A stretch of 10,019 nucleotides of DNA from an uncultured Spirochaetales bacterium. GTDB taxonomy: Bacteria > Spirochaetota > Spirochaetia > CAZPZF01. The position numbers and the translations under genes are program-made. Below, one piece after another: positions 1 through 10,019 of the stretch; the first letter of the stretch is position 1; each line of letters begins with the position of its first letter. The stretch spans positions 1 to 10,019 of the forward strand of contig CAZPZF010000121.1 in assembly GCA_964590705.1 (NCBI GenBank), read 5' to 3'. A model generated the notes under the pieces. It was not told where the DNA came from, did not search any database, and worked only from the letters and a program-made list of their open reading frames with translations.

Positions 1-1168
1 CCTGGGAGCGTCGAATCTCATCATCGGCGCGGGTCCCACCCTCTACTTCATCGGTTGCGCCGTCTTTCCCCTCGTTTCCGGGCTGCTCACCGACGGACGG
101 GGAAACAAGAAACGGGCCGTCATCCTGACCCACCTTTTTCCCGCGGTGACTACGATCCTTCTGGGACTCTTCCTCAATCTCTTCGGAACAGGAGGGGAAC
201 CAGAAACGGGGCGCGTCGTCATTCCCCTCTTTCTGACCGGCTACGCAGTCTTTTCCATGGGAATCGGCATGCTGCTCCCAGTCTGGCAGAACTACCTCGT
301 CACGATCTTCTCTCCGCAGTCGAGCGTTCCGGCCCTTGCGGTCATGATGATCGCCCAGAGCGGCTCGAAGCTCGGAAGCAGTCTCATCATCCAGGAATTC
401 GTGAAACGGTATGGTTTCGCGGTGGCTCCGACCTCGGTCTTCTTCGTCATCGTAGGCACTCTCTTCACCGTCGGCAGCCTCTGTTTCGTCATCACCCGCG
501 AGCGCGGAACGGAACCAGGTGAGCGGGGAGAACCGCGCCGGCCGCCTCTCGAAGCGCTCCGGACCGTTTTCCGGAACAGGAACTTCCTCCTCTTCCTGGG
601 AAACGAGTTCGAGTCGAGCGCGGTGACCGGCATCCTCGCCTTCTACGCCACATACGCCACAGGGTATCATGCCGTCGCCCCGGATGTGGGAGCGGGGCTC
701 TTCGTCGCCCTCAACCACGCCGGCGCCATCGTCACCAATATCGCGCTCGGCTGGTTCGGATTCCTCTCCCTAAAGGGCAAATGCGTCCTCTCCAAAGCGC
801 TCACCCTCGCAGCGGTCGCCATCCTGGTGATCGGAAGCTCGACAGCTCCGTTCCTCGTCGTTAGTCTCCTCTTGGGAACGGCGCGCGCCGTACGCTGGCT
901 CATCTACGCCCCGGCCGTTAAACAGATATCGGGGAGCAAGGATGCCACCGTTTTCTTCTCCGTAGCCCCCATCCTGACCCTGCCGCTTAGCGCGGGGATC
1001 CCCCTCCTGGGAGGGAAGATTCTCGACAGTCTTTCGAATCTGGGGGCGGGCGCCTACAGGATCGTCTTCTGCTGCATGGCCTTCTTCGTCGTTCTCGCGT
1101 TGATCTCGAACCTCCTGACCGATTTCGGCGGCCAGAGCGGTCAGCGGGAAGAACCCGCTTCGCCGTAG
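1..1168 (+). CDS. MFS-type transporter, 5'-truncated by the window edge (reading frame opens at position 2)
   Basis: The frame starting at position 2 is open from the window edge to the stop at 1166-1168. The translation is multi-pass hydrophobic and contains a cytoplasmic loop 'GLLTDGRGNKKRAVIL' matching the MFS motif A (G-x-L-a-D-r-x-G-r-k). Third codon positions are G/C-rich like the other genes. The 146 start in the ORF track is a GTG inside a longer open frame, so the real start lies upstream of the window. Confidence 0.8.
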   Translation, partial: LGASNLIIGAGPTLYFIGCAVFPLVSGLLTDGRGNKKRAVILTHLFPAVTTILLGLFLNLFGTGGEPETGRVVIPLFLTGYAVFSMGIGMLLPVWQNYLVTIFSPQSSVPALAVMMIAQSGSKLGSSLIIQEFVKRYGFAVAPTSVFFVIVGTLFTVGSLCFVITRERGTEPGERGEPRRPPLEALRTVFRNRNFLLFLGNEFESSAVTGILAFYATYATGYHAVAPDVGAGLFVALNHAGAIVTNIALGWFGFLSLKGKCVLSKALTLAAVAILVIGSSTAPFLVVSLLLGTARAVRWLIYAPAVKQISGSKDATVFFSVAPILTLPLSAGIPLLGGKILDSLSNLGAGAYRIVFCCMAFFVVLALISNLLTDFGGQSGQREEPASP

Positions 1169-1190
1169 CCCGGGGATACCCGCACGAGGC

Positions 1191-3185
1191 TCAGTCCGCG
1201 TATTCGGAAAGCGGGGTCGTAGACACCGGCTTCCTGAAAAGGGAGAAGAGGATCCCTAGAATGACGCAGTTGATCACGGACGCCGCGGCGAACAGGTTCC
1301 ACCGGGGATTCCCCGAAGCCACGCTTCCGACGTACGAAAAGAGCTTCAGGCTGATCGTATAGGCCTCATCGTTGTCAAGAAAGAGGAGCGGGGCCATGAA
1401 TCCGTTCCACGCCGAGAGAAACGCCATCATCATCGAGGTGGCTATGGCGGGCATGCAGATCGGGAGGAGGATCCTCGTCATGTACCGCACTCCACCCATT
1501 CCCTCCAGCAGCGCGGTCTCCTCTATGGAACGCGGCACCCCGTCCAGGAAGGCCTTCATGGTGAAGAGGCTGAAGACCACCGTCTGGTTCAGGTAGATGC
1601 AGACGAGTGGAACATATGTGCCGATCAAGCCCATGCCGCGGAAGATCCCGTAGAGGGGGACGAGGGAGTGCATGCCGCCGAGCATTCCCAGCGCTTGGAC
1701 AAAGGTGAGGAAGCCGTACACGAAGCGGTCGCTCTTTCCCGAAAGCCAGACCGCGGTCGGGAAGGTAAAGAGGGGGATGAGCAGGGCGGTCGCTCCCGCG
1801 ACGATCGTGGTATTCAGGAAATAGCGGAATATCGATTCCTGGGTGATCAGCCTGATGAAATTCTTTCCCGTGAGGAATCGGGGGATCAGCCTGTCCACAT
1901 AGCAGGCGCTGACGCCTGAGAAGCTCATCCACAGGAGCATGAAGATGATGAGGAGGGTCGATACGCAGAGGAGCAACGCGGTCGTCCAGTGGGAAAAAGC
2001 GTAGACCCCGCGCCTGATCGCACCGGGTTCCGGCGGTCGGCGGAACAGGAAGGCCCCCGCCGCGAGAACCGACAGGATGACCGCCGGATGGAATCCCTGA
2101 AAAAAACCGTTCCGCGATACAGCGACAACCATGAGGATGAGCTCTCCCGCGGCAGCGGGCGCCAGCGCTTTGGGCAGGAACGCGGTGACTGTGTACGCAG
2201 CTGCCCACAAAGGTCCGAAGCGCCCTCCGAGGAAGAGGTGAAAGACCGCGCAGAGGAGGGAAAGCATGCGGGACGGTTCCATGGGAAAAGGCCTGCGCCT
2301 GCCGCCCGATTTCCGCCTTCTGATGAGGAGCCACACCGACATGGCCGCGAGGATCCCGATCGAGAGGATCACCGAGTAGGCAGAGACGGCGCCGAAATCT
2401 TCCTCGCCGAAGAAAAGATCGTAGAGATAGATACCCGCGGTTGTCGTGGCCCCCAGGATGGACCGTTCCGTGATCCCGGAGACCAGGGGAGGCCCACCCG
2501 CGGTGAAGATGTGCAGCAAGGTGAATTCCTTGAGCCCCTTGATGAAGGTAAGGACGCCCATCGCTAGAAGCGTCTCCTTGACCGCGGGGGAGAATATCAC
2601 CGTGACGATATCGCCCCACCTCGCGCCGTCTAGCCGCGCCGCGTCGATCGTTTCCGCGCGCACCTTTCTGATGGCGCCCAGGATGACGAAAGCCGTGAGG
2701 GGAACGGTCATCCAGAGGCTCACCCAGAGAGCGGAGAGGAAGCTCCCGGCCGGGTCGGTCATGAGATTGATCTCGGCCCCTGTGAGCCGGGACAGGAGCG
2801 ATCTGCCGCCGTTTCCATGGATCAGCGCCCTCCAGAGGGGAGCCGCGATGTAGACCGGGATTCCCCACGGAACGAGAAGCACCCCGTAGAGAAGGGACGA
2901 CCCCCTGCCGGGCCTGGCGAGAGCGGCCGCGCACAAAAAACCCATCGCGAGGGACAGCGCGGTGTTCGCCGCGGCCCACAGGGCGGTCACCGACACGCTG
3001 TAGAGGAAACCCCGGTCAGAGAGGAGATCGCGGTAGTTGTCCAGGCCAGCACAGCTCCTCTCATCGTACGTATCGTGGAAAAAGGAGCCGTACACGGCGC
3101 TCGCGAAGGGTGCGATCCCGACCAGGAGGATCAGCAGAAGGAGGGGGATGATGAGGGTATCGGGTTTCGAAATGGATCGGCGCAT
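1191..3185 (-). CDS. Fused two-domain ABC transporter permease: a MalF/UgpA-like half plus a MalG/UgpE-like half in one 664-aa polypeptide
   Basis: ATG at 3185-3183. The protein has at least 12 predicted hydrophobic spans. It carries two separate 'EAA' permease signature loops: 'ETIDAARLDGARWGDIVTVIFSPAVKETLLAMG' in the N-terminal half and 'IEETALLEGMGGVRYMTRILLPICMPAIATS' in the C-terminal half. The two halves are joined by a basic linker (RRRKSGGRRRP). This is the last gene of the minus-strand sugar operon. Confidence 0.88.
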   Translation of the reverse strand: MRRSISKPDTLIIPLLLLILLVGIAPFASAVYGSFFHDTYDERSCAGLDNYRDLLSDRGFLYSVSVTALWAAANTALSLAMGFLCAAALARPGRGSSLLYGVLLVPWGIPVYIAAPLWRALIHGNGGRSLLSRLTGAEINLMTDPAGSFLSALWVSLWMTVPLTAFVILGAIRKVRAETIDAARLDGARWGDIVTVIFSPAVKETLLAMGVLTFIKGLKEFTLLHIFTAGGPPLVSGITERSILGATTTAGIYLYDLFFGEEDFGAVSAYSVILSIGILAAMSVWLLIRRRKSGGRRRPFPMEPSRMLSLLCAVFHLFLGGRFGPLWAAAYTVTAFLPKALAPAAAGELILMVVAVSRNGFFQGFHPAVILSVLAAGAFLFRRPPEPGAIRRGVYAFSHWTTALLLCVSTLLIIFMLLWMSFSGVSACYVDRLIPRFLTGKNFIRLITQESIFRYFLNTTIVAGATALLIPLFTFPTAVWLSGKSDRFVYGFLTFVQALGMLGGMHSLVPLYGIFRGMGLIGTYVPLVCIYLNQTVVFSLFTMKAFLDGVPRSIEETALLEGMGGVRYMTRILLPICMPAIATSMMMAFLSAWNGFMAPLLFLDNDEAYTISLKLFSYVGSVASGNPRWNLFAAASVINCVILGILFSLFRKPVSTTPLSEYAD

Positions 3186-3195
3186 TTGTTATAAC

Positions 3196-3221
3196 AGCTT
3201 CCCGGGTTCTCCCGGGAAGCT
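3196..3221 (-). promoter_or_regulatory. Perfect 11-bp inverted repeat (AGCTTCCCGGG-ttct-CCCGGGAAGCT) forming a stable stem-loop between the lipoprotein stop and the permease start. It could act as an intra-operon attenuator or mRNA-stability element.
   Basis: Read directly from the sequence: 3196-3206 is the exact reverse complement of 3211-3221, separated by a 4-nt loop. It sits in the 49-bp gap between the stop codon at 3235-3237 and the start at 3185. On the operon (minus) strand it is followed by UGUUAUAACAAAUG rather than a U-tract, so it is not a canonical intrinsic terminator. Confidence 0.5.
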
Positions 3222-3234
3222 TTAACCTCTCTTT

Positions 3235-4665
3235 CTAGAAGCGGAGGATGATCTTCGCGACTTGCCGGACCGCCTTGATCCCGTCGGGAACGAGTTTCGC
3301 GTCCTTGTCCCAGACGAGGATGAGTGGCCAGGCGTCCGCGGGTAGTTCCGCGTCTCCCTGGAACATGGCGAGGATCACGTCCTCGTTGTCGTGAAGCTGC
3401 CGGGAATCGAGCTTCACCGTGAATCCGTCAGCGGCCACAACTTCCACGGTGTAGCCCTTCTCGGCGGCCGCGGCGTCGTAGGAGAGGATCGACCTGTCCA
3501 TCTGCTTGTGGGGCATGTACTGAGGGTCGTCTGCGTAGGCAAGGAGCAGGTACAGGGGAATGCCGGTGTAGGAGAGGACCTCGTTGGTCTTCCTGTTGAG
3601 GTACTGCACCGTACGGGGATGGCAGCTCACGCCGCTCTGCACGGTCTGGCGGTCGAGAACCGCGGAGATCCGGCCCTCGATCCCTAGGGAGAATTCCCGA
3701 TAGGGTTCGCCCATGATCGCGATCCGTTTCACCATCCTGACCGAACTGTGGCCCTGGATATTCGGAATCGACGGGCCGACCTTTACAGTCCTGATATACC
3801 CCGGATCGAGCGGGAGGTATTCACCGTCCATCCTGAAGGCGAGGATCCAGACGCCGTCGGCCCTGTCCACGAAATCGCCGGCGCTGAAACTCATCTCGTA
3901 GCCGTCCATGGCCGCGAAGGTGATGGTCGAGTCTTTTCCGAGCTGCACGAAGCTCGACAGGAATGGGTAGAGTTCCACGCCACCGTAGGCGTTGGTGTAG
4001 GTGGTTCCCGCCGAGGTGGTGAAACTCCCCTTGCCCTCGAGGTAGTACACGGAGGACTCCAGGTCCTCGAGCGTGAAACTCTTCTTTTCGCCGTTGACAA
4101 CGATCTCGAGGGTGAAGACCTCGGACTGCGAGGTATCGGCGCCGAGCCCCAGCTCGATGGATACGACGTCGCGCACCCACAAAGTTCCGGGAACCGTGCC
4201 GACGATGTTCGGGGTCGTGGTCACGCCGGCCTCGTTGTCGCTGAGGTACAGGGCATCGGGGTCGTACTCGGCGGTGTTGAAGGTCACCGTGTACCCGTCC
4301 CTTCCGGTCACGGTGATGTCGTACCCCTTCTCCCACAGGGCGGAGTCGAAGAGGAACGGATGCTTGGCGTCCTCGCCGTCGGCCATGGCTGCGAGGTACC
4401 AGAGAGGCATACCCTTGAAGAGCACCCGCTCGCCCTTGCGCTCGAGGGTTATCTCCCGGTAATGGCTCGCGTGCTTCTGCGCCTCAACGAAATAGGCGGC
4501 GTCGACCGTCTCCTCGCGCACGCCGCTGATGACGATCTCCCAATCGCCCGCGCCGGAAGCGCCGGGCCCCGTGGCGCATGAGGAGAAGAGGGCAGCGCTC
4601 CCGGCGAGAAGGATCCCGAGGAGAATGGCTGCAATAGATGGAACCACCGAACGACGAGTTGTCAT
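3235..4665 (-). CDS. Lipoprotein (477 aa) made of three tandem ~130-aa repeats. Probable accessory or substrate-binding component of the ABC importer; otherwise hypothetical.
   Basis: I placed the start at the internal ATG 4665-4663, which is preceded by AAAGGAG with an 8-nt spacer. The track's upstream GTG at 4983 would add 106 residues with no ribosome-binding site. The N-terminus 'MTTRRSVVPSIAAILLGILLAGSAALFSSC' is a signal peptide with a lipobox-like L-F-S-S-C. Each of three internal repeats shows G-[MVI]-PL-[WY]-x-LL, then DGY-x-[VM]-[TS]-F, then D-[AV]-x-[LI]-LA-x(4-8)-G-x-[LP], then a [VI]-[KR]-x-[VI]-x-x-I tail. Confidence 0.8.
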   Translation of the reverse strand: MTTRRSVVPSIAAILLGILLAGSAALFSSCATGPGASGAGDWEIVISGVREETVDAAYFVEAQKHASHYREITLERKGERVLFKGMPLWYLAAMADGEDAKHPFLFDSALWEKGYDITVTGRDGYTVTFNTAEYDPDALYLSDNEAGVTTTPNIVGTVPGTLWVRDVVSIELGLGADTSQSEVFTLEIVVNGEKKSFTLEDLESSVYYLEGKGSFTTSAGTTYTNAYGGVELYPFLSSFVQLGKDSTITFAAMDGYEMSFSAGDFVDRADGVWILAFRMDGEYLPLDPGYIRTVKVGPSIPNIQGHSSVRMVKRIAIMGEPYREFSLGIEGRISAVLDRQTVQSGVSCHPRTVQYLNRKTNEVLSYTGIPLYLLLAYADDPQYMPHKQMDRSILSYDAAAAEKGYTVEVVAADGFTVKLDSRQLHDNEDVILAMFQGDAELPADAWPLILVWDKDAKLVPDGIKAVRQVAKIILRF

Positions 4666-4781
4666 AAAACGCTCCTTTTCATCATACGAATCCCGGATGC
4701 CCGCGGCGCGATCCGCATGGGACCCGGTCACAGATCCGGCGTCGGGGTGAACCCCACGCTCGTTGCCCGCGCCGGCCGCTC

Positions 4782-6269
4782 TCACATATTGGCGTCTATC
4801 ACCGCCTGACCCTGCCGTAGGGTTTCCTCGACGGTCAGCTGCCCCTCGAGGGCGAACCGGAGAAGTTTCCACATGGTGTTCTTGAAAACGGCGTATCCCC
4901 GTTCCGGGGGAATGGGCGTGCCCGTATCCGCGCTGTACCGGAGGACGGGATAATAGGGATTCCGCGCCTTGACGATCTCCCACGCCCGCTCGTCGGCCGG
5001 CAGCTTCGCCATTTCCGCCGTGAAGCGCTGCTGAACCCCTATTCCGCAGAGATACTGAATGAGGCGGCGGGCGAGCACCGGGTTGCGCGTCTTCCGCGGA
5101 ATGGCGAAGGCCTTGAAATCGAGGACCGGAGAAACGGGAAGACCGGTACGGTCGTTCATCGGATAGGGGGAGCCGGAAAAGGGAATGCCCAGCTCCAGGA
5201 AATCGGGGATGCTGTAGGAACCGGAGAGGATCATCGCCACGTTGCCGGCGACGAACTCGGCGATCATCGCGTCCCGCTCCATCTCGGCCAGGTATCCCAG
5301 GGATTTGAGGCGGAGGAGGTATCGGATGGCCTCCCGTGTCGGGCTGTCATCTATGCGGACCGACCCGTCTGCCTCCAGGAACGGGATCTTCCCAAAGGAG
5401 ACCTGAAACGGAACGAGCCAGTAGGCGGAATAGACGTTCCAGCTCATGGGCACGACCCCGGTTCCGGCTATCCGCGCCGCGATCCTCTCCATGTCAGACA
5501 AGGTCCACGAGGACGCGGCGGGTTCCCGCACAAGCCTCGGATTGGAGAAGAGGAGCTGGGAATCGAAATAGAAAGGAACAGCCCAGACCTTGCCCCCGGC
5601 GCTGAACGAGAAAAGCCCCTTGGAGGTGATCGTTTCAGGAACGAAGGAGTCCACGTTCTGGATCGCCTTGGCCTCGACGAGGGCGGGGATGTAATCCGAT
5701 TGGACCATGATCACGTCGGGCGGTGTGCCTCCCCCGCGGAGCACGGAGAGGAGCTTGGAGTCGGTCTTGGGAACCTCGGTCACCTTGACCCTGATGCCAT
5801 GCAGTTCCGCGAAGCGGGCGATCTCCCGTTTCAGGAGGGGGACCCCTTCCCAGCTCACCCAGACCTCGACATCGGCGGCCGGCGCCTCCTCGCCGTATAC
5901 CCGGATCGTCTTGACGCCGGCGATCCGCCAACCGTCTCCCTCCAGGTCGAATTCCGTGCCTCGGGGAACAAGATACCAGCGGGAGAACCGATCGACCAGA
6001 TCGTCCCCCGCCAGGGTCCGCGATCCCGTTCCGGAGACCTCGACCCGGTACACTGAAATGAAGAGGGGAAGTAACTCATCCGCGGAGATCCCCCGGACCA
6101 ACGAACCGCCGACCGGCACGAGGTAGAGGAGATCGGCGATATCGTTATGGGAGATCGCCGCGCGGGGAGTTCCGTTGACAATGAGATCCAGGGCAGGCAG
6201 GGGAAAAGCGCAAAAAGCAACGAGGATAAAAGATAGAATGGCCCTGCGGCTTCCGATGGGGAATTTCAC
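4782..6269 (-). CDS. ABC transporter extracellular solute-binding protein, family 1 (MalE-like carbohydrate binding), with an extra ~120-aa N-terminal module
   Basis: The C-terminal ~380 aa show typical family-1 solute-binding-protein features: after the N-terminal module come 'EVWVSWEGVPLLKREIARFAE', 'GKVWAVPFYFDSQLL' and 'VAGNVAMILSGSY'. I placed the start at GTG 6269-6267, preceded by GGAAAGGAAGAGG and giving a clean signal peptide 'MKFPIGSRRAILSFILVAFCAFPLPA'. The track's 6377 start is a TTG, has no ribosome-binding site, and gives 36 hydrophilic residues before the signal peptide. Confidence 0.82.
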   Translation of the reverse strand: MKFPIGSRRAILSFILVAFCAFPLPALDLIVNGTPRAAISHNDIADLLYLVPVGGSLVRGISADELLPLFISVYRVEVSGTGSRTLAGDDLVDRFSRWYLVPRGTEFDLEGDGWRIAGVKTIRVYGEEAPAADVEVWVSWEGVPLLKREIARFAELHGIRVKVTEVPKTDSKLLSVLRGGGTPPDVIMVQSDYIPALVEAKAIQNVDSFVPETITSKGLFSFSAGGKVWAVPFYFDSQLLFSNPRLVREPAASSWTLSDMERIAARIAGTGVVPMSWNVYSAYWLVPFQVSFGKIPFLEADGSVRIDDSPTREAIRYLLRLKSLGYLAEMERDAMIAEFVAGNVAMILSGSYSIPDFLELGIPFSGSPYPMNDRTGLPVSPVLDFKAFAIPRKTRNPVLARRLIQYLCGIGVQQRFTAEMAKLPADERAWEIVKARNPYYPVLRYSADTGTPIPPERGYAVFKNTMWKLLRFALEGQLTVEETLRQGQAVIDANM

Positions 6270-6363
6270 GATCCTCTTCCTTTCCAAATACGGGGGGCTC
6301 AGCCGTTTCCCGCTGAACCGTTTCGGTCCTGTTCCATAGCGTGGCGCCGTAGGATACAGGACT

Positions 6364-6393
6364 CGGAAGTATCTCAATGACGAACGGAAGTAT
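6364..6393 (-). promoter_or_regulatory. Two direct repeats CGGAAGTAT(n)TCAAT spaced 21 bp (two helical turns) apart; candidate regulator-binding sites upstream of the transporter operon
   Basis: Read directly: CGGAAGTAT occurs at 6364-6372 and at 6385-6393, each followed within 1-3 nt by TCAAT. The second copy overlaps the putative -10 of the minus-strand promoter. Confidence 0.35.
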
Positions 6394-6417
6394 GCATCAA
6401 TAACGCTGTCTGGTCAA
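6389..6417 (-). promoter_or_regulatory. Candidate sigma70-type promoter for the sugar-uptake operon: -35 TTGACC, 17-nt spacer, -10 CATACT (read on the minus strand)
   Basis: The reverse complement of 6412-6417 is TTGACC and the reverse complement of 6389-6394 is CATACT, with exactly 17 nt between them. This would put the transcription start near 6381 and give a ~110-nt leader before GTG 6269. The -10 is a weak match (4/6). Confidence 0.3.
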
Positions 6418-6441
6418 GGGAAGGGATGTGCGAGCCTTCCC
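6418..6441 (-). other. Stem-loop GGGAAGG-(10 nt)-CCTTCCC lying 24 bp downstream of the hydrolase stop codon; possible partial terminator or processing site
   Basis: A 7-bp GC-rich inverted repeat is read directly from the sequence. It is not followed by a U-tract on the minus strand, so terminator function is doubtful. Confidence 0.3.
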
Positions 6442-6464
6442 GTCCGCGTTGGCCCCGCTGAATT

Positions 6465-7742
6465 CTACGCGGGCCGGCTTTCCAGGCATGGAGCGCCCGT
6501 GTCCCTCCCGAGAATCTCCGCGGCCCTGCTGAAAACATGGTCAAAGGCCTCATCGACTCCCGGGCCGCAGGGGCCGTTCAGGGGAAACGGTTGTTCGTGG
6601 CTGTACGGAAAGGGAAAGTCCGATACCTCCACCCTGCCCGGGGGGCAGAAGCGGCCGAGGGTTTCGACGACTCCCGCGCCCGGCATCACCTCGTCTCCGG
6701 CTAGGGCGACAGCCCCCAACCGCGGGCCGAGTTCCCGAAACCGCGCGTTTCTGACCGCGGAGCCCTCGCGCAGGTCCAGCATGCTCCCGATGCACTGTCC
6801 AAGGCGCTGGAAACCTCCGGCGATCCGTTGGAGAAGGGATCCGGTCTCCTCCTTTGCGGTAGTCCGGCGTGCAACCGTCAATTCGCTGTCCATAAACTCG
6901 AGGAGGGCACGCTCCGCACCGCTGTCCATGATGTAACGGGAGACAGGGCGCATCAGATCCATCGTCGAACCTCCGCAGAAGAGGAAGCCCCGCGAGTGCG
7001 CGAATCGGTTCCCCGGATCCGCCATGAGGAGGATTTCGGCGAGGAGCGCTCCGATCGAGTATCCGAAAAAATCGAAGCTGCAGTCCCAGGGAAAAACCTG
7101 ATGCGCGCCGCCGGCAATCTGGTCCGTGAGGCTGATGATATCACGATAGGTTTGCAACCCGGAGAGGAGGAACCTGCCCGGGAACTCGTGGAGCCGGCTG
7201 CTGAGCGCGGCATTGATGAACGACACTTCCGTGATCCCCGGATACCGCTCCTTGCGCAGGGACGCGAGTCGCATCAGGATCCGCCTATCCGTCCAGCTTC
7301 GGGGGACCCGGTCCATATGGAAAGCGATCGGAAAGAGGATGACTCCCTTGCCCGTACGCCTGCACAGGGCCGCGGCCCAGGGGAGATACTTATCCCAACT
7401 CTTCTCGTTCAAGCCGTGGAGGAGGAAAATCGCTCCCCTCGGCTTCGGATCGCTCGCGGGAAGAACGATGTAATAGGGAAATCGGGTGTTCTCATCCGCG
7501 TCCTGAAGGGAGAACCCGTGCACATCAAGGGTGCTGTCCAGCCCGTCTTGTCGGGCGCGCTCCTGTCCGCTCCACGTCATGGGGAGAGGCGATTCGAAAT
7601 CGGAACGGAACGCCAGCTTCTTGATCGAGACATCCGAGCGGGCGTCATCCACCCCTCTCGAAGCGGCGGTACCGCTCTTCAGGGATTCGAACAGGCGTGA
7701 AAGGGAAGAGAGCGATTCGGCGTACGTTTCTTTTGGATGCAT
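6465..7742 (-). CDS. Alpha/beta-fold hydrolase (serine esterase/lipase-like), predicted cytoplasmic
   Basis: The nucleophile elbow G-Y-S-I-G sits in 'FDFFGYSIGALLAEILL'. Upstream is a block 'GAIFLLHGLNEKSW' typical of alpha/beta hydrolases, and a candidate catalytic His lies in 'FPFPYSHEQPF'. There is no signal peptide. I placed the start at ATG 7742-7740; the track's 7796 start is a TTG. AGGAG lies 13 nt upstream of the ATG. Confidence 0.78.
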   Translation of the reverse strand: MHPKETYAESLSSLSRLFESLKSGTAASRGVDDARSDVSIKKLAFRSDFESPLPMTWSGQERARQDGLDSTLDVHGFSLQDADENTRFPYYIVLPASDPKPRGAIFLLHGLNEKSWDKYLPWAAALCRRTGKGVILFPIAFHMDRVPRSWTDRRILMRLASLRKERYPGITEVSFINAALSSRLHEFPGRFLLSGLQTYRDIISLTDQIAGGAHQVFPWDCSFDFFGYSIGALLAEILLMADPGNRFAHSRGFLFCGGSTMDLMRPVSRYIMDSGAERALLEFMDSELTVARRTTAKEETGSLLQRIAGGFQRLGQCIGSMLDLREGSAVRNARFRELGPRLGAVALAGDEVMPGAGVVETLGRFCPPGRVEVSDFPFPYSHEQPFPLNGPCGPGVDEAFDHVFSRAAEILGRDTGAPCLESRPA

Positions 7743-7837
7743 ATCTTCGGTGCGACTCCTAGCTGTTGATCGTCGATCTTCATAAAGACAGACCAACCGG
7801 AGGCGCTTTCGGTTGCACGGTCTGCGTCGAATTCCCC

Positions 7838-7866
7838 TTGACAGATCCCACTAGTTGTTCTATTAT
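7838..7866 (+). promoter_or_regulatory. Sigma70-type promoter for the GntR operon: -35 TTGACA (7838-7843), 17-nt spacer, -10 TATTAT (7861-7866)
   Basis: The -35 is an exact consensus hexamer and the -10 is 5/6, with optimal 17-bp spacing. It sits in the only AT-rich island of the window, ~40 bp upstream of the GntR ATG. Confidence 0.6.
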
Positions 7867-7873
7867 TTTATTG

Positions 7874-7895
7874 TACTAATACTTTAATACATTAG
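7874..7895 (+). promoter_or_regulatory. Tandem TAATAC motifs (CTAATAC / TTAATAC, 8-bp register) bracketed by a short CTAAT...ATTAG inverted repeat, at about +1 to +20 of the GntR promoter; candidate autoregulatory GntR operator
   Basis: Read directly from the sequence. The position overlapping the transcription start fits repressor binding. It lies in the divergent region shared with the hydrolase gene. The symmetry is only weakly palindromic. Confidence 0.3.
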
Positions 7896-7903
7896 GACAA
7901 GCC

Positions 7904-8326
7904 ATGACCGCAGTGAAAAACAAGGAAGAGAATCTCTCGTTTACCCTCGATCCGAAGAGCGGAGTTCCGTACTACAAGCAGATAATGGTTCAGATCGAGA
8001 TGGCGATCGCGGACGGGAGGCTTGTAAGCGGAGATCAGCTTCCCACGGTCAGGAGCCTGGCGGTCGATCTCCGGATCAACCCCAATACCGTTGCCCGGGC
8101 GTACAGTTCCCTCGAGATCAGGGGAATCGTGAACACACAGCAGGGCACCGGAACCTTCATCAGCGACAAGAAAGTGTCCATGACCGACATCGAGCGAGAG
8201 AGGATCCTCACGGAGCTGACGGCCGAGTTTCTCGCAAAGGTCCAATCATACGGATTCACCAAGGACGACATAATAGCGTTCCTGGGCGAGCTGGGAACCC
8301 AGGACCAAGGAGGTGAGAGGAGATGA
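7904..8326 (+). CDS. GntR-family transcriptional regulator, short YtrA-like subfamily (140 aa)
   Basis: ATG at 7904 with AGGA 6 nt upstream. The N-terminal winged HTH 'VPYYKQIMVQIEMAIADGRLVSGDQLPTVRSLAVDLRINPNTVARAYSSLEIRGIVNTQQGTGTFI' matches the GntR signature. The C-terminal ~50 aa form only two short helices, the YtrA-type architecture that usually accompanies ABC transporter genes. Confidence 0.9.
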   Translation: MTAVKNKEENLSFTLDPKSGVPYYKQIMVQIEMAIADGRLVSGDQLPTVRSLAVDLRINPNTVARAYSSLEIRGIVNTQQGTGTFISDKKVSMTDIERERILTELTAEFLAKVQSYGFTKDDIIAFLGELGTQDQGGERR

Positions 8327-9486
8327 ACCCATTCACACAAAAGGCAGCGACATTCGCGAGAATTAAGAACGTGCAAAAAAAGAGCCTGGAGCGGGACTTT
8401 TCGTACAATCCGTTCGCGTTTCTCATCCTCGCATTATTTCTCGGGACCGGTGTCCTTCTCCAATACCGATTTTTAAACGATTTCGACTGGGGAAAAACCG
8501 CCTTCACCGCCGTCGGAACCATCGCGGGCGTCATCGTCATCGCCGCTATCCCTCTCTGGGTAACGGTCCTGACAATGATAGCGCTGGGCTGGCTTTCCAT
8601 GTTCGTCTGGCTGGGAAGCGGGTACTGGATCCTATTTCTCTTCATCAGCTTCGGGCTCTTCCTTTCACCCTCGTGCCAGCTCATCTTCCAGTGGGACAAG
8701 GCTGTGATCCTCAGGGTGGGGCGCTTTCATCGGATAAAAGGCCCGGGACTCTTCCTCCTCATGCCCATGGTCGACCGGATCGCCGCGTTCATCGACACGA
8801 GGATCCGGGCAACCGATTTCAGCGCGGAGAAAACGCTGACCCGGGACACGGTTCCGGTTCATGTGGACGCCCTGGCTTTCTGGATGATCTGGAACGCCAA
8901 GCAAGCGGTTCTCGAGGTCGAGAACTATCTGGAGGCGGTGGTCCTGTCCGCGCAGACGGCGCTCCGCGATTCGATAGGCAAGCACGATCTCGCAGATCTT
9001 CTCTCGGAGCGGGAACGGCTCTGCGCGGAGATCCAGAGCGCCCTCGACGCTAAGACCAATCCGTGGGGTATCACGATCCTCTCCATCGAATTCACCGACA
9101 TCATCATCCCGCAGGCTCTCGAGGACGCGATGAGCAAGCGGGCACAGGCGGAACGGGAGAAGCAGTCCCGTGTGATCCTCGGCACCGCGGAGGTCGAGAT
9201 AGCAAGAAAATTCGCGGAGGCAGCCGAAAGCTACCGCGATAACCCGACGGCCCTCCACCTGCGCGCCATGAATATGGTGTACGAGGGGATACGGCAGAAA
9301 GGCTCCATGATCATCCTCCCCTCCTCCGCACTCGACACGATGAACCTCGGCGGCGCCATGGGAACCGCCGCGTTCGCGAAGGGACTGGAGAGGGAAGGGA
9401 ACCCGGCCGACGGGCCTCAGGCCGGAGACGGCACCGGGCATGGCGGGGAAAACGGTCAGGCTGAAACCGACGAAATCGGACGATAA
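8323..9486 (+). CDS. SPFH/Band-7 (stomatin/prohibitin-like) domain membrane protein with an N-terminal polytopic membrane region (~3-4 hydrophobic spans)
   Basis: ATG at 8323 overlaps the GntR TGA (ATGA), with a strong ribosome-binding site AAGGAGGTGA upstream. Residues ~30-115 are hydrophobic spans. The SPFH core runs from 'WDKAVILRVGRFHRIKGPGLFLLMPMVDRIAAFIDTRIRATDF' to 'ILGTAEVEIARKFAEAAESY'. The C-terminal tail is Gly/acidic-rich. Confidence 0.85.
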   Translation: MNPFTQKAATFARIKNVQKKSLERDFSYNPFAFLILALFLGTGVLLQYRFLNDFDWGKTAFTAVGTIAGVIVIAAIPLWVTVLTMIALGWLSMFVWLGSGYWILFLFISFGLFLSPSCQLIFQWDKAVILRVGRFHRIKGPGLFLLMPMVDRIAAFIDTRIRATDFSAEKTLTRDTVPVHVDALAFWMIWNAKQAVLEVENYLEAVVLSAQTALRDSIGKHDLADLLSERERLCAEIQSALDAKTNPWGITILSIEFTDIIIPQALEDAMSKRAQAEREKQSRVILGTAEVEIARKFAEAAESYRDNPTALHLRAMNMVYEGIRQKGSMIILPSSALDTMNLGGAMGTAAFAKGLEREGNPADGPQAGDGTGHGGENGQAETDEIGR

Positions 9487-9503
9487 GCAGGGGGAGAAAA
9501 CCA

Positions 9504-10019
9504 ATGGTACGGATAGAAAACGTCAGAAGAGACTACGTCATGGGCGATGTCGCGGTCCAAGCCCTGAAAGGGATCAGCCTTACGGTCAACAAGGGGGATT
9601 TCCTGGCCATCGCTGGACCCTCCGGTTCGGGAAAAACGACACTCCTCAACATCATCGGCTGCATAGACCGGGCGGACGGCGGAACCATCCGGATAGACGG
9701 GGAAGATGTGGGAAAGAAGACAAAGGACGAGCTTGCCCTCTTCAGGAGAAGGCAGCTCGGCTTCATCTTCCAGACCTTCAACCTCATCCCCGTCCTGACC
9801 GCGTACGAGAACGTTGCCTTCGCCCTTTCGATCCTCAACATCCCGGCGGAGGAGGAGCGGCGGAGGACTATGGCCATCCTCGACGAGGTTGGGCTTTCCG
9901 GTATGGAGAACCGCCGGCCGAACCGACTCTCCGGCGGGCAGCAGCAGCGGGTCGCCATCGCCCGGGCCCTGGTGAAGGAGCCCCTCATCGTCCTCGCCGA
10001 CGAACCCACGGCAAACCTC
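9504..10019 (+). CDS. ABC transporter ATP-binding protein, MacB/LolD/FtsE-like, 3'-truncated by the window edge
   Basis: ATG at 9504 with GGGGAG 7 nt upstream. Walker A is 'GPSGSGKTT', the Q-loop 'FIFQ', the ABC signature 'LSGGQQQRVAIARAL' and Walker B 'IVLADEPT'. The frame is open to the window end. The antisense ORF 9533-10009 in the track is an artefact. Confidence 0.92.
   Translation, partial: MVRIENVRRDYVMGDVAVQALKGISLTVNKGDFLAIAGPSGSGKTTLLNIIGCIDRADGGTIRIDGEDVGKKTKDELALFRRRQLGFIFQTFNLIPVLTAYENVAFALSILNIPAEEERRRTMAILDEVGLSGMENRRPNRLSGGQQQRVAIARALVKEPLIVLADEPTANL

Follow-up and report, generated by a model that had tools for sequence, protein, structure and literature searches.

The locus and its solute-binding protein

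The DNA analysed here, hereafter the window, is a stretch of 10,019 nucleotides from an uncultured Spirochaetales bacterium (GenBank assembly GCA_964590705.1, contig CAZPZF010000121.1, positions 1 to 10,019 of the forward strand). Its minus strand carries a string of genes for a DUF6051 protein, a solute-binding protein (SBP), a lipoprotein and a fused double permease, the halves of which resemble MalF/GlcT and MalG/GlcU (Table 1). The present work concerns the N-terminal module of the SBP, which stands between the signal peptide and the MalE-like core of the protein. The SBP, the three-domain lipoprotein and the MalFG-like fused permease form an invariant cassette, found in Spirochaetota and a few Thermotogae. 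The aptamer of a riboswitch for the molybdenum or tungsten cofactor (Moco and Tuco, respectively) lies directly 5′ of the SBP gene.

The SBP read from the GTG codon at 6269 is identical to a database protein (P0001), and a purine-rich ribosome-binding site (RBS) is present just 5′ of this codon. An alternative TTG start at 6377, which would give a protein of 531 residues, was rejected, since this codon is part of the riboswitch aptamer and the database protein begins with the GTG. A cysteine is found within the last eight residues of the leader in only 15 of 73 SBP homologues. The possibility that the SBP is itself a lipoprotein, raised by the segment VAFC in its leader, was discarded because this cysteine is not conserved. 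Since the signal is of type I and has no conserved lipobox cysteine, the SBP is expected to be soluble in the periplasm.

When the full SBP was compared with Pfam, only SBP families were returned, SBP_bac_8 with 74.3 bits and SBP_bac_1 with 59.9 bits, and both matches begin only at residues 144–150. The closest solved relatives of the core are MalE1 and MalE2 of Thermotoga maritima (6dtu, 6dts, 2gha), which align over its full length (E 1e-21, core residues 3–355, numbered from residue 134 of the SBP). NCBIfam matches of the core to MalE/GanS were sub-threshold, far below the cut-offs. Residue 7 of the Thermotoga proteins pairs with core residue 3, and a canonical mature SBP would therefore begin at the start of the core, as had been held in a preliminary description of this sequence. 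The same description counted about 120 extra residues ahead of the core. The extension is real, with a length of 107 residues after the signal peptide of 26 residues; the interval that had been assigned to it, 5819–6269, takes in not only the module but also the signal peptide and, at the other end, the first 17 residues of the core. The peptides that had been quoted are all present, namely GISADELLPLF at residues 60–70, SRTLAGDD...IRVYG at residues 83–126 and EVWVSWEG... from residue 135.

The extension is not peculiar to the window. More than 100 SBP homologues of about 500 residues cover 95–100% of the query, and all 74 that were aligned have the extension, with the pattern LxIxxNG ... LSY.xP ... 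GISLxELLP ... AYR ... LAD ... YL ... WDL ... V..I...GE. The segment that joins the module to the core (residues 127–133) has a median length of 7 residues and a range of 7–12 in these 74 homologues. The profile of the module was run with HMMER against 1.84 billion representative sequences and reached 65 clusters, all of which have the same SBP architecture, are fragments of it, or are two spurious repeat proteins (P0246, P0298). As a domain architecture, the module thus occurs only at the N-terminus of one clade of SBPs.

Fold and kinship of the module

PF00174 gave no match to 52 module sequences, even at E-values up to 10, and no match to the PDB was found with Foldseek using a model of the module (best E 0.75). 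That model was made with AlphaFold2, without templates and from the 52 module sequences only. It consists of ten strands and two helices, with a mean predicted local distance difference test score (pLDDT) of 95.1 and a predicted template modelling score (pTM) of 0.86. With such scores and 12 secondary-structure elements, the segment is not a low-complexity linker, which had been named as a possible refutation of its being a domain. The order of the elements is that of the second repeat of the lipoprotein, and the three-dimensional fold is that of the Moco-binding domain of sulfite oxidases (SUOX fold, PF00174). Structures named for this fold are those of SorA (2blf), YedY (1xdq), chicken sulfite oxidase (1sox, 2a99), SoxC (2xts), Thermus sulfite dehydrogenase (8s5s), nitrate reductase (2bii), SorT (4pw3) and PruR (7kp2, 7rkb). 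The module is very probably an autonomous domain of the SUOX fold.

It had been proposed that the module is a fourth copy of the fold that is repeated in the lipoprotein. Profile–profile alignment with hhalign detected a similarity above chance. Module and repeat 2 aligned with a score of 32.1 (P 3e-5), to be compared with a mean of 12, a standard deviation (s.d.) of 2.3 and a maximum of 21 for 100 column shuffles of either partner. With a merged profile of the three repeats and an archaeal relative, 98 co-linear columns were aligned with a score of 29.5 (P 9e-5), about 11 s.d. above the shuffles (mean 10.3, s.d. 1.7, maximum 14.3). When the module family was aligned with the whole lipoprotein family, repeat 2 was picked (P 1.3e-4, probability 54%), and no signal was obtained with repeats 1 and 3 taken singly. 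The alignment pairs module residues 1–106 with lipoprotein residues 186–324, from LDLIVNG/LEIVVNG to IRVYGEE/IAIMGEP, and both of its ends are domain boundaries. The two periplasmic components of the importer would thus share a domain, as had been suggested. On these profiles, the module is probably a very diverged fourth copy or paralogue of the lipoprotein domain, nearest to repeat 2 and of common origin with it.

The alignments also bear on the motifs that had first drawn attention to the module. The correspondence of GISADELLPLF to the G-x-PL-x-LL element of the repeats was reproduced. In the tail of the module, the terminal VK-x-I-x-V strand was recovered, whereas the pairing of D-x-x-LA with TLAGDD was not. 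By the order of secondary-structure elements, the equivalent of the WILAF strand of the repeats is YLVPR; hhalign placed it on EFDLEG, which was considered to be a shifted register.

The lipoprotein itself can be related to known families, as its repeat 2 passes the threshold of PF00174 (Oxidored_molyb, 35.8 bits for a cut-off of 24). The profile of the lipoprotein family found only a chance match among PDB sequences. Repeat 2 contains an invariant T-S-A-G-T motif that recalls the C-A-G-N molybdenum-ligand motif of sulfite oxidases, and repeat 3 contains an invariant Cys348-His349 pair, with SC..H also occurring in archaeal domains that are presented below (the motif sites of repeats 2 and 3 are residues 213–221 and 348–349).

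The closest functional precedent is PruR, a secreted periplasmic protein of Agrobacterium, Vibrio and Klebsiella (7kou, 7kp2, 7rkb) that has a degenerate SUOX fold, binds a pterin and works by docking with a partner domain in the periplasm (PMC11194511). Like PruR, the module is a secreted minimal SUOX fold without the catalytic cysteine, Sec-exported and presumably non-catalytic. PruR is a single-domain, proteobacterial protein encoded in an operon with the GGDEF-EAL protein DcpA, whereas in the present system, of Spirochaetota and Thermotogae, the SBP carries one fused copy of the fold and the lipoprotein of an ATP-binding cassette (ABC) importer carries three. In Agrobacterium tumefaciens PruR, the pterin is sandwiched by Asn102, Tyr104 and Trp160 (PMC11194511). 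Unlike in PruR, no motif is conserved in the module at the presumed site of the pterin-stacking tyrosine, and there is no DcpA-like neighbour; no such gene was conserved near the cassette in the loci inspected. The position corresponding to the Asn-x-Tyr of PruR was taken, by assumption and not as a residue-level equivalence, to be that of a D-G-Y motif. This motif is kept in the lipoprotein repeats and in the archaeal domain, and is aligned with non-conserved residues in the module.

The Moco domain of sulfite oxidases (PF00174; 2blf, 1xdq, 1sox, 2xts, 2bii) has about 170–250 residues, whereas the module has about 100. Unlike that family, the module has no Pfam match, no conserved cysteine, no signal for twin-arginine translocation (Tat) and no dimerisation domain. 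No alignment column of the module family exceeds 15% cysteine, and 27 of the 52 modules, that of the window included, are devoid of cysteine. The mean pairwise identity is 29% for the module, 52% for the core of the same proteins and 44–56% for the lipoprotein repeats, so that no part of the system changes faster than the module, the rate of which is about double that of the core.

Molybdoenzymes of the periplasm acquire their cofactor in the cytoplasm and are exported by Tat. The leaders of the SBPs are type I Sec signals, and the lipoprotein leader has a conserved lipobox and a lysine-rich n-region, in which a twin arginine is rare (7 of 72 homologues). As molybdoenzymes use Tat and these leaders do not, the SBP and the lipoprotein are unlikely to be classical Moco enzymes. 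The lack of a conserved cysteine, the disappearance of D-G-Y and the Sec signal peptide argue that the module is not a molybdoenzyme. As far as can be judged from its residues, it lacks the features of a cofactor or pterin site, and neither binding of Moco nor catalysis is expected of it.

Riboswitch control, distribution and an archaeal parallel

The aptamer overlaps the start of the SBP gene, with the GTG at 6269 lying within the Rfam model. The 3′ strand of its P1 helix holds the GGAAG of the SBP ribosome-binding site, a few bases 5′ of the GTG. The Rfam scan found the aptamer in 11 of 11 loci, and a covariance model made from these aptamers found the element in 70 of the 71 sources that have the 5′ region of the SBP gene on the contig. 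The P3 columns are missing from the aptamer of the window, as from each of the 11 that were aligned, and this corresponds to the Tuco-type variant (classification of PMC2408646). P3-less aptamers correlate with the use of the tungsten cofactor (PMC2408646, PMC11725836). A promoter-like site upstream, weak evidence when taken alone, might begin transcription at about the start of the aptamer.

An RBS inside P1, as in the off-switch of Escherichia coli moaA, predicts repression by the ligand (Regulski et al., PMC2408646), and a study of Eubacterium limosum describes such an aptamer that directly sequesters a translation start (PMC11725836). By likeness to moaA, the leader of the window is predicted to be an off-switch. 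The fetABC2 leader of E. limosum has its RBS placed in the same way as the present leader and that of E. coli moaA. The aptamer is full-length, as in the known RF01055 regulons (modABC, tupABC, moa operons, WOR1 and the E. limosum 'Fe' ABC transporters). Unlike in these regulons, the genes here encode neither transporters of the ModA/TupA/WtpA type nor enzymes of Moco biosynthesis. Membership of the regulon ties the cassette to cofactor status. Because it lies behind a Moco/Tuco riboswitch, the operon is a candidate uptake system linked to the tungsten or molybdenum cofactor, and induction of this importer by cofactor scarcity is, on balance, favoured.

Second copies of the aptamer were found directly 5′ of genes for NAD-type aldehyde dehydrogenases (PF00171) at two other loci. 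These enzymes may be cofactor-independent back-ups for tungsten-dependent aldehyde oxidoreductases. Their position behind the same aptamer would fit a cofactor-sparing regulon, if the tungsten-dependent oxidoreductases fail when the cofactor is scarce.

On another reading, the SUOX-fold proteins would function in the periplasm as true molybdo- or tungsto-enzymes, an extracytoplasmic redox reaction being coupled to import of its product and the riboswitch matching enzyme synthesis to cofactor supply. RF01055 aptamers also precede genes of cofactor-using enzymes (PMC2408646, PMC11725836). The invariant Cys-His pair of repeat 3 (C348/H349) and the name 'molybdopterin-dependent oxidoreductase' given by NCBI to lipoprotein homologues would likewise agree with this reading. 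Both this reading and a convergent beta-grasp as the nature of the module are disfavoured by the data on the fold, the homology with the repeats, the loss of site features and the riboswitch, taken together, and both are highly improbable.

A scan of genomes with the lipoprotein family yielded 78 loci, 76 of them bacterial and two from distant archaea. The bacterial loci belong to Spirochaetota (Spirochaetales, Treponemataceae, Rectinemataceae, Sediminispirochaeta, Marispirochaeta, Sphaerochaeta, Breznakiellaceae), to three metagenome-assembled genomes (MAGs) of Thermotogae and to two MAGs without a named phylum. The upstream gene encodes a module-bearing SBP in all 66 bacterial loci in which its 5′ part is on the contig. 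When SBP homologues were taken as the starting point instead, genes for the lipoprotein and a fused permease followed that of the SBP in seven of seven loci, with variable flanking genes. Since the three Thermotogae MAGs (L054, L061, L063) hold the complete cassette, with riboswitch, module-bearing SBP, lipoprotein and fused permease, it is suggested that the unit was transferred as a whole between this phylum and Spirochaetota.

A cassette of comparable design was found in archaea (Thermoplasmatota/'Methanobacteriota'). It is conserved in five of five loci, the two distant hits and three more from a homology search, and comprises a protein that is anchored in the membrane and has three to seven SUOX-like domains, the S-component of an energy-coupling factor (ECF) transporter, EcfA–A′ and EcfT. 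A calcineurin-like (Metallophos) phosphoesterase is encoded in four of the five and was not detected in L083. No riboswitch was found in these loci. The S-component, of the YkoE/Trep_Strep type, continues into a basic linker, which is followed by a seventh hydrophobic helix and, at the C-terminus, an extracellular SUOX-like domain of about 118 residues. A search with it gave 742 significant hits, at least 120 of which have the full extended length (the best 120 listed are all extended). The fused domain matched the lipoprotein repeats in hhalign with 98.5%, 95.9% and 96.0%, and the profiles indicate that the two are clearly homologous. Its match to the SBP module was weak (E 0.003–0.009) and in register. 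The archaeal multi-SUOX protein was also compared with the PDB in order to relate the invariant cysteine to the molybdenum-ligating one, and only sub-threshold matches to SorT and sulfite oxidase were obtained, which do not cover the cysteine. Two mechanistically unrelated importers thus each carry one SUOX-like domain on the capture subunit and have a multi-SUOX protein adjoining, as an independent parallel.

This parallel bears on two other views of the module. The module could itself bind a ligand, in the manner of a carbohydrate-binding module or of PruR, and offer a second site for the solute or for its polymer or carrier. It shares its fold with a pterin binder (PMC11194511), the archaeal S-component carries one such domain with D-G-Y kept, and residues N6, G34, E39 and P42 of the module show little or no variation. 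Against this stand the loss from the module of the D-G-Y that marks the pocket in the repeats and the archaeal domain, its rapid evolution, and the location of most conserved positions in the structural G-I-S-L-x-E-L-L-P turn and helix, which is common to the whole superfamily; ligand binding by the module is considered unlikely. Alternatively, the module would be a structural relic that arose by duplication and fusion from the lipoprotein gene, and would now serve only as a spacer or stabiliser of the core, or would contact the permease and not the lipoprotein. Fast evolution, lost site motifs and a near-constant linker of 7 residues, suggestive of rigid packing on the core, would be expected of such a relic. 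Yet the module has never been lost in any of the 66 assessable loci, in Spirochaetota and Thermotogae alike, the very confident fold obtained from a diverse alignment indicates purifying selection on structure, and an analogous fusion arose independently on an unrelated archaeal capture subunit. The relic is thus rated as even less probable than a ligand-binding module.

Table 1 Features of the window and of the other loci referred to in the text
Locus	Feature	Positions	Strand	Remarks
Window	MFS (major facilitator superfamily) transporter gene	146–1168	+	
Window	Fused double permease gene	1191–3185	−	664 residues; two BPD_transp_1 domains
Window	Lipoprotein gene	3235–4665	−	476 residues; lipobox LFSS-C; three SUOX-fold/PruR-like domains
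Window	Lipoprotein repeat 1	4141–4545	−	
Window	Lipoprotein repeat 2	3700–4125	−	
Window	Lipoprotein repeat 3	3238–3699	−	
Window	SBP gene	4782–6269	−	495 residues; GTG start 6269, stop 4782–4784
Window	SBP core	4782–5870	−	Residues 134–495 and stop codon; MalE-like (CUT1, SBP_bac_1/8)
Window	Linker	5871–5885	−	Residues 129–133, APAAD; joins module to SBP core
Window	N-terminal module	5886–6191	−	Residues 27–128; very probably a compact SUOX-fold (Oxidored_molyb/PruR-like) domain with degenerate cofactor site
Window	SBP signal peptide	6192–6269	−	Residues 1–26, MKFPIGSRRAILSFILVAFCAFPLPA; type I Sec
Window	Moco/Tuco riboswitch aptamer (RF01055)	6261–6380	−	P3-less variant; Rfam 72.8 bits (gathering 36), E 1.9e-16, model 1–135
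Window	Promoter-like site	6389–6417	−	TTGACC, 17-nt spacer, CATACT; consensus scan, 9/12 matches; weak alone
Window	DUF6051 protein gene	6465–7796	−	E 1e-102; weak thioesterase/alpha-beta-hydrolase signal; just 5′ of riboswitch
Window	SPFH/Band 7 gene	8323–9486		
Window	ABC ATPase gene	9501–10019	+	5′ part only, runs off window end; 3′ of SPFH/Band 7 gene
L004	MFS transporter gene	7522–9063		
L005	MFS transporter gene	5237–6529		
L085	MFS transporter gene	6535–7809		
L004	Second aptamer, 5′ of aldehyde dehydrogenase gene	17065–17232	+	
L048	Second aptamer, 5′ of aldehyde dehydrogenase gene	10991–11114	−	
L082	Archaeal cassette	4432–12518		
L083	Archaeal cassette	5797–11121		
L086	Archaeal cassette	3427–10298		
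L087	Archaeal cassette	3872–10314		
L088	Archaeal cassette	4058–10222		

The cassette holds no ATPase gene. As in many CUT1 systems, the ATPase gene would lie outside the operon; such systems commonly share an ATPase encoded elsewhere. The ABC ATPase gene at the right end of the window was examined as the missing energiser and rejected, as its product is LolD/MacB-like and not MalK-like, and it belongs to an unrelated gene pair. The DUF6051 gene was also rejected as a part of the system because it is absent from the other loci inspected, and it probably does not belong to it. No catabolic gene was conserved beside the cassette in the loci inspected. An MFS transporter gene adjoins the cassette in several neighbourhoods that are otherwise dissimilar, that of the window among them.

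Role of the module and meaning of the cassette

The best overall explanation, to which a probability of about 50% is given, regards the module as a degenerate adaptor domain of an importer that is induced when cofactor is scarce. With plentiful tungsten or molybdenum pyranopterin cofactor, the riboswitch would hide the RBS and the importer would not be made; with scarce cofactor, it would be made. The lipid-anchored lipoprotein would capture a cofactor-related solute in its better-conserved, PruR-like pockets. The substrate might be a pterin-type cofactor, a precursor or breakdown product of it, a molybdenum or tungsten species, or else an unrelated compound needed when cofactor is low. The degenerate module would then bring the soluble SBP to the array of lipoprotein domains, and the solute would pass to the MalE-like cleft and on to the fused permease, with ATP hydrolysed by an ATPase encoded elsewhere.

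The main argument for linking the capture subunit functionally to the repeat protein through a single domain is comparative, as the Rosetta-stone-like pattern recurs in archaea. The specific role of the module as an adaptor or docking domain between SBP and lipoprotein is proposed by analogy, and only tentatively. A simple oxyanion transporter of known type is disfavoured because the core and the permease are of the sugar type. A cofactor-related solute is favoured by the SUOX fold together with the riboswitch.

Several observations weigh against this explanation. Searches of Pfam, NCBIfam and PDB sequences with the module or its profile returned nothing. The lipoprotein repeats were not among the sequences that HMMER reached from the module profile, and BLASTP between module and lipoprotein was not significant (E 0.82), with a best segment that paired the starts of both domains. 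The hhalign probabilities are modest (54–73%), and common descent of the module and the repeats is for this reason likely and not proven. Core and permease belong to the sugar (CUT1) type and do not resemble ModA, TupA or WtpA. The short linker of fixed length suggests that the module packs on its own core, and a part played within the SBP, for instance as a lid, as a permease contact or as a stabiliser, would be equally consistent with this. In E. limosum, FocA and transporters annotated as iron importers are likewise controlled by Tuco riboswitches (PMC11725836), so that riboswitch control does not fix the substrate. Finally, one complete locus (L065, 3800–4700) has no riboswitch upstream of its module-bearing SBP, even with the filters off; it is the sole exception.

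A more specific proposal is that the cassette scavenges the pyranopterin cofactor itself (Tuco, Moco or molybdopterin), a stable precursor or a breakdown product. Arrays of SUOX domains without cofactor would capture the pterin outside the cytoplasmic membrane and hand it to the capture subunit of the transporter, on which a single domain of the same kind is present. In archaea, an ECF transporter would operate in this way, and the cassette there includes a secreted phosphoesterase as well. This proposal is regarded as doubtful, with somewhat less credence than the docking role of the module.

Compared with canonical systems of the MalE type, the importer differs by a SUOX-fold domain of about 100 residues before the first strand of the core, by fused permeases, by the added three-domain lipoprotein and by Moco/Tuco riboswitch control. 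It is rated as a domain-augmented, SBP-dependent importer with a PruR-like use of the SUOX fold. A further precedent exists in the TatT–TatP(T) system of Treponema pallidum, in which an accessory periplasmic lipoprotein pairs with the SBP of a tripartite ATP-independent periplasmic (TRAP) transporter and may hand it its ligand. That system is of the TRAP and not the ABC type, its lipoprotein has tetratricopeptide repeats (TPR) and not SUOX domains, and TatT and TatP share no domain. In the literature searched, coverage of which was incomplete, no account was found of the cassette, of its distribution among phyla, of SUOX-like domains on SBPs or ECF S-components, or of Moco uptake by prokaryotes. 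The shared fold, the riboswitch and the archaeal parallel together point to a previously undescribed family of 'SUOX-domain-assisted' importers.

The molybdenum and tungsten cofactor is widely held not to be importable as a nutrient, with nematodes as the sole known exception (PMC9026282; PMC7849362). If the scavenging proposal were true, the cassette would be the first route of molybdenum or tungsten cofactor uptake to be described in prokaryotes; it is a concrete, testable candidate for cofactor-related uptake in anaerobic bacteria. Extra domains of SBPs have rarely been explained, and the one present here very probably has the fold that normally holds the molybdenum cofactor. Whatever the substrate, the module constitutes a new sequence family that is missed by Pfam, and automatic names such as 'extracellular solute-binding protein' and 'molybdopterin-dependent oxidoreductase' mask the true architecture of the proteins. 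The cassette also widens the idea introduced by PruR, that degenerate SUOX folds may serve as extracytoplasmic binding or docking modules.

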